Source: an uncultured Gammaproteobacteria bacterium (GTDB lineage: Bacteria; Patescibacteriota; Microgenomatia; Woykebacterales; RBG-16-39-9b). Taken from it: a DNA stretch of 64,000 nucleotides. The DNA lies in NCBI GenBank assembly GCA_964360785.1, contig CAYHXX010000002.1, forward strand, positions 28,107 to 92,106, in the 5' to 3' direction. Below are positions 3,620 through 18,641 of the stretch, piece by piece. Position numbers and translations under genes: made by a program. Position 1 is the first letter of the stretch. Each line of letters starts with the position of its first letter. Below the pieces are notes generated by a model. The model saw only the letters and a list, made by a program, of their open reading frames with translations, was not told the origin of the DNA and ran no database searches.

Positions 3620-5713
3620 TTACCCTTCAAACTTCCGGGTTAGATTGAGCCTGCCCTTTTCATCCACCTCTTTGACGATCACATCAATTTTTTGACCCAA
3701 CTTAACTTCGCGATTTATATCCTCAACCCGGTACGGAGCGATTGCCGAAATATGAACCAAACCCTCTAGCCCTGGCATAATCTCCACAAAAGCCCCAAAC
3801 GGCATTATTTTTTTGATCGTTCCAGAAAACTGTTCCCCTGGTTTTGGTTCGTGTGTCAAACCATCAATAATTTTCATGGCTTCTTCGGTTTTCTCTGGGT
3901 CGTTTCCGGAAATCATCACCGTACCATCATCTTCGATATCAATCTCGACGCCAGTATCTTCGATAATCTTATTGATTGTTTTACCACCAGTACCGATCAC
4001 AGCACCGATTTTCTTTGGTGAAATATGCATGACACTCACTCTTGGAGCGTATTTGGACATATCTTCACGAACCTTGGGCATTACTTCAAGCATCTTGCCG
4101 AGAATGTGATCGCGCCCAACTTTTCCATCTTTGAAAGTTTCTTTAACCATTTCTATTGTCAGCCCGTCAATTTTTACATCTAGCTGGATTGCGGTAATAC
4201 CTTTTTCTGTTCCGGCAATCTTGAAGTCCATATCGCCATAAAAATCTTCGAGTGCTTGAATATCTGTCAGAACTTTCCAGGTATCACCTTCTGTGACCAG
4301 CCCCATGGCAATACCAGAAACTGGAGCTGAGATAGGAACACCTGCGTCCATCAAAGCTAGTATTGATCCACAAGTAGATCCCATTGAAGTTGATCCAGAA
4401 GAACTCATTACCTCAGAAACTACTCGCACAGTGTAGGGAAATTTATCCGATGGCGGCATTACATTTACCATAGCTTTCTCCGCAAGTGCGCCATGACCAA
4501 TTTCGCGTCTTCCAGGAGTACCCATACGACGTACCTCTCCAGTAGAGAATGGTGGGAAGTAGTAGTGGTGCATGAAACGTTTTGTTTCTTCACCTTCCAT
4601 AGTGTCAATCATCTGCTCAAGTGACGTAGATCCGAGAGTAGCTACTGACAAAACGTGGGTCTCACCGCGTTTGAAAAGTGCAGAACCATGAGTTCGTGGT
4701 AACAAACCAACCTCAACCTCGATCTTACGGACATCCTGTGTTTTACGTCCATCTGGGCGCTTACCTTCGTCAATAATAGCTTCTCGCACCATTTTCTTCA
4801 CAGTTTCTTCAAAGATCTCGGTCATTACATCTTTGGAAAGCTTACCTTCATAGTCAACAAAGATTGCTTCTTTCAGCTCTTCAGCGGCTGTCTCACGATC
4901 AGCTCTTTCTGCGTTAAACAACTTTTCCTTGAAGTTGTCTTTGATGTGCTGAACAATTTCTTTCTTGAGCTCCTGATTAACCTCTTTGATTTCGTAAGAA
5001 TGGTCAACCTTTCCAACTTCCTTGACCCATTGATCAATAAAGTCAAAAACTGGCTCAACGCTCTTTTTGGCAAACTCAATTGCCTCGAGAACTGTCTTTT
5101 CTGGAACTTCTTTGGCTTCCGCTTCGATCATAACTGTTTTATCGCGGTTGAAAGTCACCAGCAGTTGCAATTCGCTTTGTTCCTCCTGAGTATGGGTTGG
5201 GTTTAGTACAAACTTACCGTCGATAAGTCCGACTGTAGCCGAGGCTACTGGACCCTTCCAAGGTACGCTGGAACTTTTGATGGCTGCTGAAGCGGCAATC
5301 AAACCAAGGTTGGCGGCGTCGTTTTCCATATCATAAGAAAGTACAGTGATGATCACTTGGACTTGATTGAAATAATCTTTGGGAAAAAGGGGTCTGATGG
5401 AACGGTCGATCAATCTGCCCGAAAGTATGGCATTCTCAGTCGGACGACCTTCGCGTTTGATAAATCTCGATCCAGAGATTCTTCCGGAAGCGTAAAACTT
5501 TTCCTCAAACTCAACTGAGAGTGGAAAGTAGCCCAGGTCTTCTGAGGCTTGCGCGTGAACTACGGTAACTAGTACAACGGTATCACCATATTGGGCAAGA
5601 ATCGTACTATCAGCTTGGGTCTCAATCCGACCGGTTTCAAAGCTTAAAGTCCGACCTCCCCAGGTAATTTCTTTTTTAATAACACCTTGGTTTTTAGCAG
5701 ATTTTTCTGTCAT
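3620..5713 (-). CDS. pnp: polynucleotide phosphorylase
   Basis: 697 aa. Two RNase PH domains plus KH and S1 at the C-terminus (GEQFSGTIKKIMPFGAFVEI). Confidence 0.9.
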   Translation of the reverse strand: MTEKSAKNQGVIKKEITWGGRTLSFETGRIETQADSTILAQYGDTVVLVTVVHAQASEDLGYFPLSVEFEEKFYASGRISGSRFIKREGRPTENAILSGRLIDRSIRPLFPKDYFNQVQVIITVLSYDMENDAANLGLIAASAAIKSSSVPWKGPVASATVGLIDGKFVLNPTHTQEEQSELQLLVTFNRDKTVMIEAEAKEVPEKTVLEAIEFAKKSVEPVFDFIDQWVKEVGKVDHSYEIKEVNQELKKEIVQHIKDNFKEKLFNAERADRETAAEELKEAIFVDYEGKLSKDVMTEIFEETVKKMVREAIIDEGKRPDGRKTQDVRKIEVEVGLLPRTHGSALFKRGETHVLSVATLGSTSLEQMIDTMEGEETKRFMHHYYFPPFSTGEVRRMGTPGRREIGHGALAEKAMVNVMPPSDKFPYTVRVVSEVMSSSGSTSMGSTCGSILALMDAGVPISAPVSGIAMGLVTEGDTWKVLTDIQALEDFYGDMDFKIAGTEKGITAIQLDVKIDGLTIEMVKETFKDGKVGRDHILGKMLEVMPKVREDMSKYAPRVSVMHISPKKIGAVIGTGGKTINKIIEDTGVEIDIEDDGTVMISGNDPEKTEEAMKIIDGLTHEPKPGEQFSGTIKKIMPFGAFVEIMPGLEGLVHISAIAPYRVEDINREVKLGQKIDVIVKEVDEKGRLNLTRKFEG

Positions 5714-6249: not shown

Positions 6250-7071
6250 TTAAGACACTCTTGAGCTTCGGAAAATTTTTGGTGAAAGCCAATTTTCAGG
6301 AGTTTCTTGCTTCTCAGTTTCCTCTGTTTTGGTCGTCTCCTTTTCAAAACTGACCATCCCCGGTATCATACAGCGCTTTAGGTAAGCTGCTGCCTCAAAG
6401 GTTGTTGGGTCAGAAACTGCCGTGAAATTGTTGGTTGCTTCTCTGATACCGACCAACATTATCTCCGCTGCTTTTGTTGGCAAAAGAATTTTCGCATTCT
6501 TGAATGTATTGGTTGCCAGATAACAAACCCCGTCTGTAGTTGTTGAAACTAAGTTAATTTTTGCAAACTGTGTGTTTTCTCGATTTGTATCAAAATTCAG
6601 GCTTGGTAGTCGGTTGAAAAGATCAAGCTCTACACCGAAATTTCTCAATTCCTCAAGGTTGGCAACCCCAACCGTTAGAACCAAGTCAAACTTCTGTCCC
6701 TTATAAGAATAGGTTATATCTGCTGGATTGATTCTTTTTCCGTGTGAATTAACTATCAGGTCAAACCTGTTGCCTTCGATGTTGTAACTTACTTTATCAA
6801 GCTGAGCTGCCGCCCAGTCAAAACTAATGACCAAACTTTCTGGGTCAAGTTTTGCTCTAATAAATTCTGGTTTTACTAGGGGTCTAGCTGCTATCGGAAG
6901 TTCTCTATTTGTCAGAAGCAAACTTTGCTTTTTGTAGGCCCCAAAAATTTCAACCAAACTCGCTGCTAAACAAGCAAGGTCATTATCCATATTGTCGCCC
7001 AGGATAACCAGAGCGCTCTGGGATTTGTCAAACAATTCTTTTAGCTGAAAACTGACAACATTAATCTGCAT
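6250..7071 (-). CDS. hypothetical protein, possibly a degenerate DHH-family (NrnA-like) phosphoesterase, in the infB-rpsO interval
   Basis: ILGDNMDNDLACLAASL resembles DHH motif I/II. The DHH triad itself is not conserved (NSHG). Synteny with rbfA/nrnA/truB positions in other bacteria. Confidence 0.35.
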   Translation of the reverse strand: MQINVVSFQLKELFDKSQSALVILGDNMDNDLACLAASLVEIFGAYKKQSLLLTNRELPIAARPLVKPEFIRAKLDPESLVISFDWAAAQLDKVSYNIEGNRFDLIVNSHGKRINPADITYSYKGQKFDLVLTVGVANLEELRNFGVELDLFNRLPSLNFDTNRENTQFAKINLVSTTTDGVCYLATNTFKNAKILLPTKAAEIMLVGIREATNNFTAVSDPTTFEAAAYLKRCMIPGMVSFEKETTKTEETEKQETPENWLSPKIFRSSRVS

Positions 7072-7115
7072 AAGCTAATTCAGTATAATAAAGACACTAG
7101 ATAATACTATGGGTA

Positions 7116-8591
7116 TTAAGAAAATGCAACAATAACATCGCCTTTGTCAAAATCGGCGAAATTCTCAAACAATAAACCACATTCTTCACCTTCCTTGGCC
7201 GTGTTAATTTCTTTTTGGAGATGACGAATACTTTTTATCCTAGTAGTTCCAATCTCCTCTTCATCCCTGAGAAATCTTACGCGATCACCTTTAGCTAATC
7301 GGGACTCAGTTATCTTTGTTCCCGCAATTTTTCCGTAGCTCGTGTCAAAGATCGCAATGATCTGACCTCGACCTAAAATCTTCTCGCGTTTTGCATCAAC
7401 CAGAAGTTCCAATCCTTCTTTTAGTTCATCAAGCAATTCGTAGATAATACTGTAGGAACGAATCATTACTTTTTCCTCTTCAGCAAGCTTTTCCGCTGAC
7501 TTCGCAATTTTTACGTTGAAAGAAATTATTAGTGCTTTTGTTGAGGCAGCCAATAGCACATCGGAGTCTGAAACTTCTCCAGTTTCTTTGTGAACAATAT
7601 TGACCTTACGTTCCTGATCACTCAAGGATTCGATTGCTGCGATTATAGCTTCCAAAGAACCGACAACATCTGCTTTCACAATTAGATTTATCTGGGTTTT
7701 TCCACTATTGGCTAGGGAAGCGAATGGGTCTCTTTTTTCGACTTTCTCTTCTGAAGTATCTACCTCTGAGTTCGCTGCGTTTACCAAGGTCACAACCTCA
7801 CCTACGCCTGGAACTTTTTCAAACCCGAGAATTTCGACTGGCATTGAAACACCAGCTTCTTTTTGTTGTTTTCCATCACTATCAATCAGTGATTTAACTT
7901 TCCCAAAACATTCTTTACTTTTTATCTGGTCGCCGATTTTCAGTTTGCCTTTTTTTACCAAAATAGTTGCTAGCGGACCACGAAATTTATCAAGGGAGGA
8001 TTCAATCACAACACCTTCAAAATTTGCAGAACTTTCATCTTTCAACTCTGCCATTTCGGCCACAAGGTTGATCATTTCAAGAAGATCGTCCACACCTTGC
8101 CCAGTCTTAGCTGAGATGGGAACAGTCACAACATCGCCACCATAACCTTCCGCCAAAACCCCAGCTTCTGAGAGCCCTTTTTTTACCCGATCAACGTTGG
8201 CACCAGGAGCGTCCATCTTGTTTATCGCAACTATCATTGGAACCCCAGCGCTCTTGATGTGAGTAATCGATTCTTTTGTCTGTGGCATCACACCATCATC
8301 TGCAGCAACCACCAGAATAACAATATCAGTTATGTTTGCCCCGCGAGCACGCATGGCGGAAAAAGCCGCGTGTCCCGGAGTATCAATAAAGGTAATCGTC
8401 TTACCATCTTTGGTGATCTGATAAGCACCAATGTGCTGAGTGATACCACCATGTTCTTTTTCGGCAACTTTTGTGCTACGGATGTAATCTAGAAGAGTGG
8501 TCTTACCATGGTCAACATGACCCATGATAGTAACAATTGGGGCTCGTGAGGGAGTATTCTTTTTTGTAGTTTCTGTTTTTGTTTTTGCCAC
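7116..8591 (-). CDS. infB: translation initiation factor IF-2; short form of 491 aa that lacks the N-terminal domains
   Basis: G domain [21 protein letters not shown], followed by the IF2 beta-barrel domains. Confidence 0.85.
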
Positions 8592-10186: not shown

Positions 10187-10299
10187 ACCGATGTAGCTCA
10201 GTGAAGAGAGCGCCATTTAAGTCTTGCTTTGTTCGGTGGACGGGACCGAGCAACAGAGAGCATTGGAGGTCGGAGGTTCGAATCCTCCCATCGGTACCA
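10187..10299 (+). tRNA. aberrant 113-nt tRNA-like gene with an insertion of about 37-40 nt between the D arm and T arm; isotype undetermined
   Basis: Canonical acceptor ACCGATG/CATCGGT, D arm GCTC-AGTGAAGA-GAGC, T arm GGAGG-TTCGAAT-CCTCC and CCA end, but 59 nt where an anticodon arm and variable loop would normally take about 22 nt. Confidence 0.5.
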
Positions 10300-15081: not shown

Positions 15082-15645
15082 TTATCCTATCGCACCCAAG
15101 ACTTTTTCGAAGATCTTTTTGTGGCCCGCTGCATTTGGATGATCTCCATCATTATAAAAATCATCTCTTGTTAAAACTCCAAAACAGTCGGCAAATTTGA
15201 GGTTTCTTTCTTGGGAAATTTCTTTAATCACTTCATTGTATTTCTTAATTTCTTCGTTTCTATAACCAAACTTGTTACTCTCCTCATCAATATTGTTAAG
15301 TTCAACTACTACAATATCCTTAGTAATTTTTTCTGCTTTATCCAAAAGCTCTTTATAAGAACTTTTAAACTCGTCTATTGGTGTTCCACCTGGGTTGTCT
15401 ATGTTTGTACTGTCATTAATTCCAATGGAAAAAATAATCTTATCTGGTCGGCGAGCGTCAACCTCTAGATCAAATCTTTTCAAAACGTCAGACACTCTGT
15501 CTCCGGAAACTCCGCAGTTATACACATAAGTTTCAGGATCATTATCAAAGAAATGCACTTTGAGCCGCTCGACCCAGCCTCCGGATTCTAGATCAAAAGC
15601 TCCCCAAGTTATACTATCCCCAAAAACACATATTCTATTGCTCAT
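15082..15645 (-). CDS. SGNH/GDSL-family hydrolase
   Basis: ICVFGDSITWG (GDS block I) and DGDHPN (DxxH block V). Confidence 0.7.
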   Translation of the reverse strand: MSNRICVFGDSITWGAFDLESGGWVERLKVHFFDNDPETYVYNCGVSGDRVSDVLKRFDLEVDARRPDKIIFSIGINDSTNIDNPGGTPIDEFKSSYKELLDKAEKITKDIVVVELNNIDEESNKFGYRNEEIKKYNEVIKEISQERNLKFADCFGVLTRDDFYNDGDHPNAAGHKKIFEKVLGAIG

Positions 15646-16097
15646 TCCTTTTTTTCTTCGTCAACTACTTCACCTTCAAGTTTTGTATCTATTCCTATTC
15701 TCAAAAACCCATTCTTCTTGTAATCTGCATCAAAACTAAAAATTTCTTGCTTATTTCTTTCCTTCAGTATTGCGATATTAACCATATCGGTAAATCTGGA
15801 ATTTTTTGAAGCTTGATTCTTGAAAACTTCAAATGCTTGATTTCTCAATTTTGTATCTACCTCAACTATTTCCACCTGGCTATTCAAAATCTCGTTAGCA
15901 AAATTTACTGCAGCAGCATGACCAACGTTTTGGCTGATAACTGTGATTGCTTCACCAAAGGCTGGATCCGATGTAACCGTCCCACAACCAACAGCGCTAG
16001 CTACACTACTAACTGCGACAGCCAGTTTGTGATTTGAGTCTTTGGAGTCTACTAGTGCTACAAAGGCATCAGCGTCGACGAAGAGTTCTTTTTCCAT
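15642..16097 (-). CDS. vapC: PIN-domain toxin (VapC-like). The start is probably at the internal Met (MEKELFVDAD), not the upstream ATG of the ORF-track entry.
   Basis: LFVDADAFVAL N-terminal PIN motif and C-terminal SFDADY. The last 10 residues ([10 protein letters not shown]) are encoded by a duplicated dnaK tail. Confidence 0.6.
   Translation of the reverse strand: MEKELFVDADAFVALVDSKDSNHKLAVAVSSVASAVGCGTVTSDPAFGEAITVISQNVGHAAAVNFANEILNSQVEIVEVDTKLRNQAFEVFKNQASKNSRFTDMVNIAILKERNKQEIFSFDADYKKNGFLRIGIDTKLEGEVVDEEKKE
15650..15678. repeat. direct repeat copy 1 (TTTTCTTCGTCAACTACTTCACCTTCAA); duplicate of the dnaK 3' end
   Basis: 28/28 identical to 16431-16459, plus flanking GTTTTG similarity. 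Confidence 0.75.
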
Positions 16098-16338
16098 AGT
16101 TCGGGGACTTACTACCATATAAGTAGGAGTTAATATTCGTGGAAAGGTTACCGGGACCAGCTGTGGCTTTTGCAGCGATCTTGAGCAAAACATCAGCCGG
16201 AGATTCGCTTGTCTTTTTTCTTAAACCAGATTTTAAAAGCTCCCTGATTATTTCAGCCTGTGGTTTATCTTGTTTCTTGGAAAGAAGGTTAATCTCCCGA
16301 TCCAGAGTCTCGGTAAGATATATTTGTTTTCTTTTCAT
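16069..16338 (-). CDS. ribbon-helix-helix (CopG/VapB-like) antitoxin
   Basis: KQIYLTETLDREINLLSKKQDKPQAEIIRELL has an RHH beta-strand/helix pattern. Sits immediately upstream of, and overlaps, the PIN gene. Confidence 0.55.
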   Translation of the reverse strand: MKRKQIYLTETLDREINLLSKKQDKPQAEIIRELLKSGLRKKTSESPADVLLKIAAKATAGPGNLSTNINSYLYGSKSPNYGKRTLRRR

Positions 16339-16424
16339 TTTCGTCCTCGATAAATATCGCGCTTATGAACTCTAATTATCGTAAATACTTACTAGCGCGT
16401 TATACGCTATACATTATACACTAC

Positions 16425-18371
16425 TTACTTCTTTTCTTCGTCAACTACTTCACCTTCAACTGTTTTGTTGTCTTCTTTTTCCTTCGACGCGCCTTCGGCT
16501 TGCTCAGGACTACCGCCTTCACCGTCTGTTGGTGGGATTTCTTCTTGGACGCCGGCGCCTTCGGGGTTGGTTCCGGGTGCGTTTTCATACATGGCTGATC
16601 CGATTTTTTGCAGCGCAGCCCCGAGTTCGTCAGCGGCTTTCTTAATATCGTCCGCATTGTCCTTTGTTATCGCCTCTTTAGCAGTAGCGACTTTTTCCTC
16701 AACTTCTTTTTTGACGTCCTCGGCTACTTTGTCACCAGCATCTTTGAGAGATTTTTCGGCGGTATAGACCAGAGAATCAGCGATGTTGCGGGCTTCAATC
16801 AATTCTTTTTTCTTGGCATCTTCCTCGGCGTGTTTTTCTGCTTCCGCGGCCATGTTGGCAGCTTCTTCCTTGGAAAGACCTGTTGAGCCGGTAATGGTAA
16901 TTTTTTGTTCTTTGCCAGAGGCCTTATCCTTGGCGTGAACGTTGAGAATGCCATTAGCATCAATATCAAAGGTTACTTCGATCTGGGGGACGCCACGCGG
17001 TGCTGGTGGTACTCCATCGAGTATGAACCGACCAAGCGATTTGTTGTCAGTTGCCATTGGTCGCTCTCCTTGTAGAACATGGACCTCGACACTAGTCTGA
17101 TTATCCGCAGCCGTTGAGAAAGTTTCTGTCTTGGCAGTTGGAATAGTTGTATTGCGCGCGATCAATACAGTTGAGACTCCGCCAAGGGTTTCAACTCCAA
17201 GGGAGAGTGGGGTAACGTCCAAAAGAACGACATCTTTAACCTCCCCGGTAAGGACTGCCCCTTGAATCCCAGCGCCAATGGCAACAACCTCGTCTGGATT
17301 GATCCCTTTGTGGGGATCTTTGCCGAAAAACTTTTTGACTGCTTCTTGCACTGCTGGCATTCGGGTCATACCGCCAACCAAAACCACCTCATCTACCTTG
17401 GCCGCGTCAATTCCAGCGTCTTTAATAGCGGCTTTACAGGCATCAAAAGTTTTATCAATCAAACTTTGGACCAAACTTTCGAGTTTGGCTCGAGAAAGTT
17501 TTACCAGCAAATGTTTTGGTCCGGAAGCGTCAGCGGTGATGAAGGGAATGTTAACCTCAGTTTCCAGAGAACTGGAAAGCTCGATCTTAGCTTTTTCCGC
17601 ACTATCGCGCAGTCGCTGCATTGCTTGCTTATCGGCTGAGAGATCAACACTATTTTCTTTTTTAAATTCTTCTACCAGAAAATCAATAATTTTTTGGTCA
17701 AAATCATCTCCTCCCAGGTGGGTGTCGCCGGAAGTAGATTTGACTTCAAAAACACCTTCGCCCAGTTCCAAAATGGAAACGTCAAAAGTTCCACCACCAA
17801 GGTCATAGACCGCAATCGTGTGGCCTTGTGATTTTTCCAGACCATAAGCCAGAGCTGCTGCAGTTGGTTCATTAATAATTCTTTTGACATCAAGACCAGC
17901 GATCTCACCGGCCTGTTTTGTTGCTTGGCGCTGGGCATCGTCAAAGTAAGCCGGGACGGTAATCACGGCATCGGTAACTTTCTCACCCAAATAACTTTCG
18001 GCATCAGCTTTGATTTTTTGGAGAATTTGCGCGGAAATTTCTTGGGGTGTGAATTCCTTACCCTCAACTTCAACCACTGCCATATCATTTTTGCCACTCT
18101 TTACAGTGTAGGGAAGCCACTTCACATCGCGTTGCACAGTCTCGTCTTTAAACTTATGTCCCATCAATCTTTTTACTGAAAAAATTGTCGTTTTTGGGTT
18201 AACCACTGCTTGGCGCTTGGCCACCCGCCCAACCACTCTTTTGATCGGATCGACAACTGAAGGGATAATATTTTCACCCTCAGCCGAGTGGATTACTTTT
18301 GGCTGGCCCCCCTCAATGATAGCTACGGCGCTGTTTGTTGTTCCTAGATCGATACCAATAATTTTTGACAT
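16425..18371 (-). CDS. dnaK: molecular chaperone DnaK (Hsp70)
   Basis: [18 protein letters not shown], 648 aa. Confidence 0.95.
16431..16459. repeat. direct repeat copy 2 (native dnaK 3' end)
   Basis: See copy 1. Together the repeats bracket the RHH-PIN cassette, about 780 bp. Confidence 0.75.
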
Positions 18372-18389: not shown

Positions 18390-18641
18390 TTAATCAACTT
18401 CAAGAACGTAATTTTTAACAATCACCCACACTAGACTAAAGAGTACCCACCAAATCAAGACATCAAAGGCTACTGAAAAATAATTTATATGATAACCAAC
18501 TGTTCCATCGACATTAAAATTATCCCGAGCAAAGGTAAACGGAAAACCATGTTTGGACTCGTCTCTAATATAGAAAAAACTAATTGCCGTGATAATCACA
18601 GCCAGTAGAAGAGTCCACAAAAGTGAAAGTGCCTTAATCAT
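18390..18641 (-). CDS. small membrane protein (83 aa, 2 TM) between grpE and dnaK
   Basis: Hydrophobic helices. Overlaps the grpE stop by 4 nt. Confidence 0.4.
   Translation of the reverse strand: MIKALSLLWTLLLAVIITAISFFYIRDESKHGFPFTFARDNFNVDGTVGYHINYFSVAFDVLIWWVLFSLVWVIVKNYVLEVD

Follow-up and report, generated by a model that had tools for sequence, protein, structure and literature searches.

The locus and its direct repeat

We analysed a 64,000-nucleotide stretch of contig CAYHXX010000002.1 (the window, by which we mean this whole stretch), in which a small gene for a ribbon–helix–helix (RHH) protein and a gene for a PIN-domain protein follow dnaK, and in which the PIN protein ends in a peptide that is also found at the C-terminus of DnaK. 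Its host, from groundwater, is a Woykebacteria-like bacterium of the candidate phyla radiation (CPR). The relevant genes of the locus all lie on the minus strand. Together with the repeat they are:

16425–18371, minus strand: dnaK, 648 aa (open reading frame (ORF), with an HSP70 Pfam match on the identical gene of the source contig)
16432–16459, minus strand: repeat copy 2, at the 3′ end of dnaK, which encodes (V)EGEVVDEEK, with extended similarity over 16425–16464
16069–16338, minus strand: VapB-like RHH antitoxin gene, 89 aa (Pfam RHH_1, E=3.6e-4)
15642–16097, minus strand: VapC20-like PIN toxin gene, 151 aa (Pfam PIN, E=2.4e-7), starting with the ATG at 16097
15645–15680, minus strand: C-terminal tail of the PIN protein, its last 11–12 residues, a copy of the DnaK C-terminal motif that contains repeat copy 1 (15652–15679)
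15082–15645, minus strand: SGNH/GDSL hydrolase gene (ORF and Pfam), the downstream boundary of the module

The RHH and PIN reading frames overlap by 29 nt, the PIN stop codon and the start codon of the hydrolase gene overlap as ATGA, and a separate gene call on the source contig yielded the same genes. The PIN protein of the window is identical to database protein P0001. An identical DnaK was found on contigs of Hainich groundwater metagenomes (ENA ERZ1292618, ERZ1292617). An assembly artefact is unlikely, given that the identical DnaK occurs on four contigs and that P0001 is recorded from two; two of the four contigs were read, one of which carried the whole region while the other ended inside the antitoxin gene.

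The exact direct repeat, TTTTCTTCGTCAACTACTTCACCTTCAA, is 28 nt long, with copies at 15652–15679 and 16432–16459. These were the only two matches to it in the window when up to three mismatches were allowed, and none occurred in 100 shuffles. Ungapped extension lengthened the similarity to 40 nt with 36/40 identical positions (90%; 15645–15684 against 16425–16464) and a start-to-start spacing of 780. The sequence-only reading of this DNA had placed the repeat at 15650–15678 and 16431–16459; the exact duplicate is real, and the coordinates were off by 1–2 nt. It had also claimed that the C-terminus of the toxin is encoded by the duplicate of the dnaK tail, and we found repeat copy 1 within the PIN 3′ end, as that claim implies. 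At the protein level, the motif EGEVVD was confined in the 64-kb window to the dnaK and PIN ORFs, at the C-terminus of both. Given the peptide and the codon usage of the window genome, the chance of agreement in all eight codons of EGEVVDEE was about 0.002, and thus the DNA identity in the window goes beyond what the shared peptide alone would give. A further similarity on the 5′ side of the repeat, ACAAAAC(+2 nt)TTGAAGG, was present in the window only, without a counterpart in other lineages, and was taken as chance.

The RHH–PIN pair resembles VapBC modules

To the Pfam matches listed above, of which that to RHH_1 (score 20.8) was barely over its cut-off of 20.5, we added structural and family comparisons. 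The AlphaFold2 model of the PIN protein, built from an alignment of 41 family members, had a mean predicted local distance difference test (pLDDT) score of 90.9, and its best Foldseek match in the PDB was Mycobacterium tuberculosis VapC20 (27% identity, TMt 0.87, root-mean-square deviation 2.1 Å). Rank 4 was taken by entry 5x3t, listed as 'VapBC from Mycobacterium tuberculosis', which we take to be VapBC26. The profile of the PIN family also matched VapC20 (E=2.3e-14), and four acidic residues, D8, E49, D104 and D123, were invariant in the 41 family members. The NCBIfam VapC model gave 16 bits on the PIN protein, far under its cut-off of 73.6, and a sequence search with the RHH antitoxin found no solved relative. 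The small RHH gene lies immediately upstream of the PIN gene on the same strand, and this pairing was kept in all related loci. Because of the Pfam matches of both proteins, the VapC20 fold and profile, the four acidic residues and the 29-nt overlap, we class the pair, as judged from its sequence, as a VapBC-type type II toxin–antitoxin (TA) module, which in itself is ordinary. The earlier description of the pair as an RHH antitoxin and PIN toxin cassette is borne out, with the Pfam, VapC20 and gene-overlap evidence in agreement.

The likeness to VapBC20 and VapBC26 thus covers the PIN fold and family, the four acidic residues and the small overlapping upstream antitoxin gene. The differences are that VapC20 aligns to the PIN core only and has no comparable C-terminal extension, that VapBC20 and VapBC26 have no linkage to dnaK, and that the RHH protein here is without a detectable solved relative. 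VapC20 and VapC26 cut 23S rRNA in its sarcin–ricin loop (PMC5175351), and VapC targets are predictable from phylogeny according to Winther et al. (PMC5175351). The target of the present PIN protein is possibly this loop too, a prediction from relatedness only.

A DnaK C-terminus copied onto the toxin

The normal C-terminus of the PIN family is ...R(F/I)GID(K). Among the 267 family proteins retrieved, six carried a DnaK-like extension:

P0001 (window): 12 residues including EGEVVDEE
P0002: LEGEVVDKDKK
P0058: LEGEVVDDKK
P0064: LEGEVVDEDKS
P0112: LEGEVVNEEKK
P0116: LEGEVVEEAKKE

The six tailed proteins, which belong to two allelic types and are 42–69% identical, all share LEGEVV[D/N/E]. The DNA context could be read for five of them (L001, L003, L006, L007 and L020/L051); at these loci the module begins 50–90 nt past the dnaK stop and DnaK ends in VEGEVV(D/E)E(E/D)KK(E). 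In bacterial DnaK the C-terminal motif, 625-DDVVDAEFEEVKD-637, is conserved and has been proposed to be an auxiliary client-binding site (PMC7918210). The tail of the window PIN protein fits the acidic (D/E)(D/E)VVD... form of this motif, which in Pseudomonas putida and Escherichia coli reads DDVVDAEFEEVKD (PMC7918210). PIN tail residues 142–151 had pLDDT values below 50 in the AlphaFold2 model, and the tail is predicted to be disordered.

We conclude from these sequences that the last 11–12 residues of the toxin are a copy of the DnaK C-terminus and that the direction of copying was from DnaK to PIN, because the PIN family otherwise ends in GID(K), VapC20 has no comparable extension, and in the Daviesbacteria-/Curtissbacteria-like locus L017 DnaK ends in ...VEGEVVEEDNKKE, yet the PIN protein there has no tail and does not adjoin dnaK. 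The same tail was not found on any PIN protein unlinked to dnaK; every tailed PIN gene with readable context directly follows dnaK. A metagenome scan with a loose degenerate DNA pattern for G-x-D-x-x-L-E-G-E-V-V gave one true locus among the matches listed, L051 (the same as L020).

PIN proteins ending in ...STKID or ...AKVD were considered as a second case of such mimicry and set aside, the one with readable context (L146) not lying beside dnaK. In a separate subgroup of the family, outside the window (P0088, P0090, P0092, P0102, P0104, P0107, P0108 and P0139), we observed extensions ending in -QAA, -KAA, -EAA or -PAA, which recall the Ala-Ala degradation tags of the ssrA type. C-terminal add-ons may be a recurring theme in the VapC20-like toxin family.

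The module is an old resident of the heat-shock neighbourhood

Homologues of the PIN protein came from CPR bacteria of the Microgenomates group, namely Woykebacteria, Daviesbacteria, Blackburnbacteria and Curtissbacteria. An RHH–PIN pair occupied the gap between dnaK and dnaJ in ten separate Woykebacteria-like loci (L001, L003, L007, L008, L011, L014, L020, L147, L149 and L150), and DnaK identity across these loci was 74–93%. Since the pair fills this gap over such a range of DnaK divergence, the module appears from the comparison to be an old resident of the heat-shock neighbourhood. In the Daviesbacteria-/Curtissbacteria-like loci L017–L019, L022 and L024, dnaK is next to dnaJ and a tail-less RHH–PIN pair lies 3–5 kb upstream of hrcA, in L017 directly after lepA. 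As far as these gene orders can tell, the RHH–PIN family is tied to the heat-shock neighbourhood across Microgenomates, at differing positions.

On the source contig the gene order was lepA ... hrcA-grpE-orf83-dnaK-RHH-PIN-SGNH-cupin-orf115-HAD-NUDIX-orf298-dnaJ, so that hrcA, grpE and an 83-aa ORF lie upstream of dnaK. This ORF (18390–18641, minus strand), between grpE and dnaK, encodes a hydrophobic protein without a Pfam match; it was kept at 81–85 aa in most of the Woykebacteria-like loci examined, and L147/L148 had no called counterpart. The ORF may belong to the heat-shock operon as a lineage-specific gene. Gene content of the dnaK–dnaJ gap differed among all loci compared, and the gap behaves as an insertion hotspot. 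In L020, two extra ORFs (78 aa and 201 aa; 6444–7282) separate the PIN stop from the SGNH gene, and the first of them begins at a TAATG overlap with the PIN stop. L147 has a second, unrelated PIN pair in the gap (4979–5628).

The antitoxin–toxin interface is exchanged within a fixed frame

The closest genome, L020/L051, was compared with the window at the protein level. DnaK was 93%, the SGNH protein 84% and HrcA 78% identical, versus 49% for PIN and 59–62% for RHH. The DNA comparison located this divergence. Similarity of about 78% extended from dnaK across the intergenic element into the RHH gene, of which it covered the first ~125 nt, and similarity resumed in the last 105 nt of the PIN gene including the tail (82%) and in the SGNH gene (83%), with no DNA similarity in the 3′ half of the antitoxin gene and the first ~115 PIN codons. 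The same pattern of similar flanks and a dissimilar core was found between the window and L006, L007 and L151. The allele-specific core and the two allele types are:

15828–16236, minus strand: allele-specific core, comprising the RHH C-terminal half and roughly the first 90–115 PIN codons, without DNA similarity to the type-B alleles of close relatives
Allele type A: window, L003, L008, L011, L014
Allele type B: L020, L006, L007, L147, L149, L150, L151

The boundaries of the core are approximate (16214–16237 and 15747–15830) and varied with the relative compared. In type-B loci, DNA similarity to the window reached over the last 105–180 nt of the PIN gene, tail included. The N-terminal DNA-binding part of the RHH antitoxin was conserved and its C-terminal half was allele-specific, and this half changed together with the N-terminal two-thirds of the toxin between types A and B. 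The distribution of allele types was incongruent with DnaK relatedness, and both types contained tailed and tail-less members. These alignments indicate that the region of the toxin–antitoxin interface has been swapped between lineages or kept as an old polymorphism, and that the PIN 3′ end with its tail belongs to the backbone of the locus. Directly past the stop of the tail-less PIN gene in L147 (6424–6510) we observed the relic of a second PIN 3′ end, lying in a different frame (...ELKKNGFIRVGIDEGI*). It has the look of a remnant left by allele replacement within the dnaK–dnaJ gap.

Age of the tail

Tail DNA of the PIN genes was only partly identical to that of the cognate dnaK outside the window: ~75% in L003, 86% in L006, 70–81% in L007 and 81% in L020. 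Continuing homogenisation has thus left little trace in most lineages. The window was the outlier, its PIN and dnaK tails being identical at 28/28 positions. The PIN tails were like one another, with a core of CTT GAR GGK GAR GTR GTW. Their leucine codon was CTT in 6/6, at a position where DnaK has valine encoded by GTY (once GTA). Within the LEGEVV codons of the six tailed PIN genes, 5/5 variable positions were third-codon positions and no amino-acid replacement had occurred. The DNA past the PIN stops was unrelated or unalignable between loci. Because the PIN tails are alike, vary synonymously, sit on PIN cores of 42–69% identity and are followed by unalignable 3′ DNA, the pattern fits a single old origin followed by constraint on the peptide, and not independent recent duplications. 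The 28/28 identity in the window has a chance of only ~0.002 given the same peptide, which makes a recent event the most economical account there; the two window copies probably became identical again through a short and recent gene conversion.

A putative promoter of the module

Between dnaK and the antitoxin gene we identified one further feature:

16399–16424, minus strand: promoter/operator-like element GTAGTGTATAATGTATAGCGTATAAC, abutting the dnaK stop, with three TGTATA(A/G) heptads and TATAAT at 16413–16418

A block (G)GTGTATAATGTATAG(T/C)GTAT, in which TGTATA(A/G) heptads overlap a TATAAT, was found upstream of the RHH gene in 7/7 loci compared, and it adjoins the dnaK stop in the window, L003 and L020. 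In L006, L008 and L150 the antitoxin ATG lies inside or right past the TGTATA heptads, which suggests that the antitoxin transcripts of these loci are leaderless or nearly so. We infer from its position and conservation that the block is a putative promoter and operator of the module's own. A simple promoter scan of the window missed the element, in which the −35 spacing is non-canonical (20 nt from TTGACG). No terminator was predicted after dnaK, and no match to the CIRCE operator with up to three mismatches was found anywhere in the window. We also considered that the tail DNA is kept for the sake of a −35 box, TTGACG in GTT GAC GAA. This was rejected, as the hexamer is missing in the PIN tails of L007 and L020 and in several dnaK tails, and the 20-nt spacing between TTGACG and TATAAT in the window also disfavours it. 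The antitoxin leader (16339–16424, minus strand, in the window; also in L020) contains a conserved 6-bp stem, CGCGCT...AGCGCG.

Explanations for the tail

We favour the explanation, with a probability of about 0.6, that a resident VapBC module lies beside dnaK and that the toxin tail is an ancient capture of the dnaK 3′ end, kept as coding sequence by purifying selection. The tail would have a single, ancient origin in a duplication or capture of the 3′ end of dnaK, dating from when the module came to lie against this gene, and would have stayed with the locus backbone during exchange of the antitoxin–toxin interface between lineages. Such a duplication or capture is the likeliest origin, although it is not reconstructible from present data. 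The RHH antitoxin would repress the promoter via the TGTATA heptads and neutralise the toxin, and the freed PIN protein would cut an RNA needed for translation, possibly the 23S sarcin–ricin loop, the target of VapC20 and VapC26. The DnaK-like tail would be a short linear motif by which the toxin is bound to whatever recognises or employs this motif on DnaK, and could link the toxin with the chaperone system. Some form of functional constraint on the tail is fairly probable, with purifying selection on a short linear motif as the favoured kind. That the tail is a true mimic of the Hsp70 C-terminal motif is a much more tentative proposal, which we consider doubtful. By presenting the docking or auxiliary-client peptide of DnaK, the toxin would be drawn to, compete for or receive help from a partner shared with DnaK, which may be DnaJ or a different co-chaperone, a misfolded client or a protease.

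Several observations weigh against this explanation. About half of the PIN proteins in the dnaK–dnaJ gap are tail-less (P0003–5, P0113–115 and P0117–119), and given these the tail is dispensable. No relic tail was found past the stops of the tail-less PIN genes in L008, L011, L014, L147, L149 and L150, so loss by recent nonsense mutation is not supported and the ancestry of the tail is not proven. Tailed PIN genes directly adjoined dnaK in 5/5 cases, compared with 2/6 of the tail-less ones (Fisher p=0.06). Tail identity within genomes was marginally greater than between genomes (p=0.05, or 0.08 without the window), and both the dnaK adjacency and this raised identity fit upkeep by gene conversion from dnaK better than selection acting on the toxin. 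We know of no bacterial partner for the DnaK tail. The sample comprises six tailed sequences in total, with DNA context for five, and the comparison loci were all retrieved via PIN similarity, a procedure by which empty dnaK flanks would have been missed; the absence of an empty site among the ten related loci is for this reason not an unbiased test.

The gene-conversion pattern leads to the alternative that we take most seriously, though we still think it unlikely: that the tail is a functionless, neutral leftover of an old duplication, conserved in appearance only, being overwritten repeatedly by conversion from the strongly constrained dnaK 3′ end 0.8 kb away. The 28/28 identity in the window needs an event at the DNA level, the slight within-genome excess of identity points the same way, many relatives have no tail, and the tail occurs only where PIN directly follows dnaK and is missing in all four loci that have genes inserted between the two. 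However, tails differ at 14–30% of positions in 4/5 genomes, so that conversion must be rare relative to divergence, and LEGEVV is without amino-acid change in six lineages. The leucine CTT of PIN opposite the valine GTY (once GTA) of DnaK would moreover require conversion tracts that always stop at the same base, and the residues past VV differ between PIN and the cognate DnaK (DKDKK versus DEDKK; DEDKS versus EEEKKE). A role of the repeat as DNA, in which the core would be exchanged or excised by way of homology arms formed by the conserved PIN 3′ end and tail plus the dnaK end and promoter, and in which the peptide is incidental, would suit the mosaic locus with its swapped core and conserved flanks as well as the relic PIN 3′ end in L147, and direct repeats can mediate precise deletion. 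We regard it as improbable, since the variation within the tail is synonymous throughout, a sign of constraint on the peptide and not on the DNA, since tail-less alleles share the same mosaicism, and since homologous recombination would find a poor substrate in 30 nt when 100–180 nt of conserved PIN coding sequence lie next to it.

The sequence-only reading had proposed that the repeat is the target-site-duplication-like footprint of TA cassette insertion. That a mobile cassette recently entered the 3′ end of dnaK and left the 28-nt repeat as its target-site duplication is already largely refuted, and we give this hardly any credence. An exact direct repeat does flank a compact two-gene module of 780 bp, and recombination between the copies would restore an intact dnaK (...EEKKE*) overlapping the SGNH start, with an ending known on the DnaK of relatives. 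But RHH and PIN are the sole ORFs between the repeats, there are no terminal inverted repeats and no transposase or integrase, and no ORF for a tyrosine or serine recombinase was found either between the repeats or in the dnaK–dnaJ gap (SGNH, cupin, orf115, HAD, NUDIX, orf298). The 28–40 nt of the repeat exceed usual target-site duplications of transposition. The module, promoter element and tail occur at the same site down to 74% DnaK identity, the PIN tails are orthologous to each other, and the closest relative, L020, with a DnaK 93% identical, also has a tailed module there. Phage carriage was likewise rejected, neither the PIN family nor the promoter element having been found on the viral contigs scanned. 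The other suggestion made earlier, that a PIN gene acquired a dnaK-derived terminus by recombination, agrees better with the evidence of a mosaic locus in which the tail goes with the backbone.

Relation to other toxin and chaperone systems

In P. putida, GraT requires the acidic C-terminal motif of DnaK to be fully toxic, the motif also adds to fitness, and mutating the motif DDVVDAEFEEVKD relieves GraT toxicity (PMC7918210). GraTA, a HigBA-type system, thus resembles the present module in that a TA toxin is linked to the conserved disordered C-terminal motif of DnaK. It differs in that the DnaK motif acts in trans, on a toxin of RelE/HigB fold with a disordered N-terminus, whereas the PIN protein of our locus carries the motif in cis. 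GraT is the only experimental precedent we found for a link between a toxin and the DnaK tail.

Toxin–antitoxin–chaperone (TAC) systems, such as M. tuberculosis HigBA1 with its SecB-like chaperone, have a dedicated chaperone in the operon and a chaperone-binding extension, ChAD, on the antitoxin. Our locus shares with them the genetic coupling of a TA module to a chaperone gene and a short C-terminal extension as the candidate coupling element. Here, however, the neighbour is the housekeeping dnaK, a SecB-like chaperone is absent, and it is the toxin that bears the extension, a copy of the chaperone's own tail. The antitoxin ends in a basic stretch that is common to tailed and tail-less loci. 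The module is not a TAC system.

The C-terminal EEVD of eukaryotic Hsp70 and Hsp90 is read by co-chaperones with tetratricopeptide repeats and by class B J-proteins. As in that case, we have a short acidic motif on a disordered chaperone tail, and the window tail contains an EVVD core; the difference is that in eukaryotes EEVD, a docking peptide, stands at the extreme C-terminus. To our knowledge, no bacterial reader has been described. Genomic islands and phages, for their part, use att sites in tRNA or protein genes and duplicate the 3′ end of the target gene at integration. A direct repeat of the target 3′ end flanking foreign genes, with the target gene left intact, is the feature in common. 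The locus differs from such elements in having no integrase, in measuring only 780 bp, and in that the distal copy is translated in a resident gene and conserved as protein.

What sets the present case apart is a toxin that permanently bears the conserved C-terminal motif of the neighbouring housekeeping Hsp70 and keeps it although its alleles have diverged deeply. Should the tail be functional, it would offer a natural experiment on the binding and role of the bacterial DnaK tail, and would represent a new wiring of a toxin to the proteostasis network, compared with the antitoxin extension of TAC systems or the action in trans on GraT. If mimicry in the strict sense is true, a translation-arresting nuclease encoded in the heat-shock locus would be switched by the load on the chaperone system, in a cis-encoded version of the dependence of GraT on the DnaK tail, and would provide a handle on the function of that tail in bacteria. 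If the tail is kept only by conversion, the locus would still be a clean case of an insertion scar turned into the coding sequence of a neighbour, and would still show allele swapping of a TA interface inside a fixed genomic frame.

Elsewhere in the window, we observed a fifth tRNA at 10187–10296 (plus strand), which was found by Rfam (complete with respect to the model, 51 bits) and is not reported by ARAGORN. It has 48 nt in the region of the anticodon loop, versus a normal 11, indicating an insertion or intron of ~37 nt, and it closes a Trp-Pro-Ala tRNA cluster.

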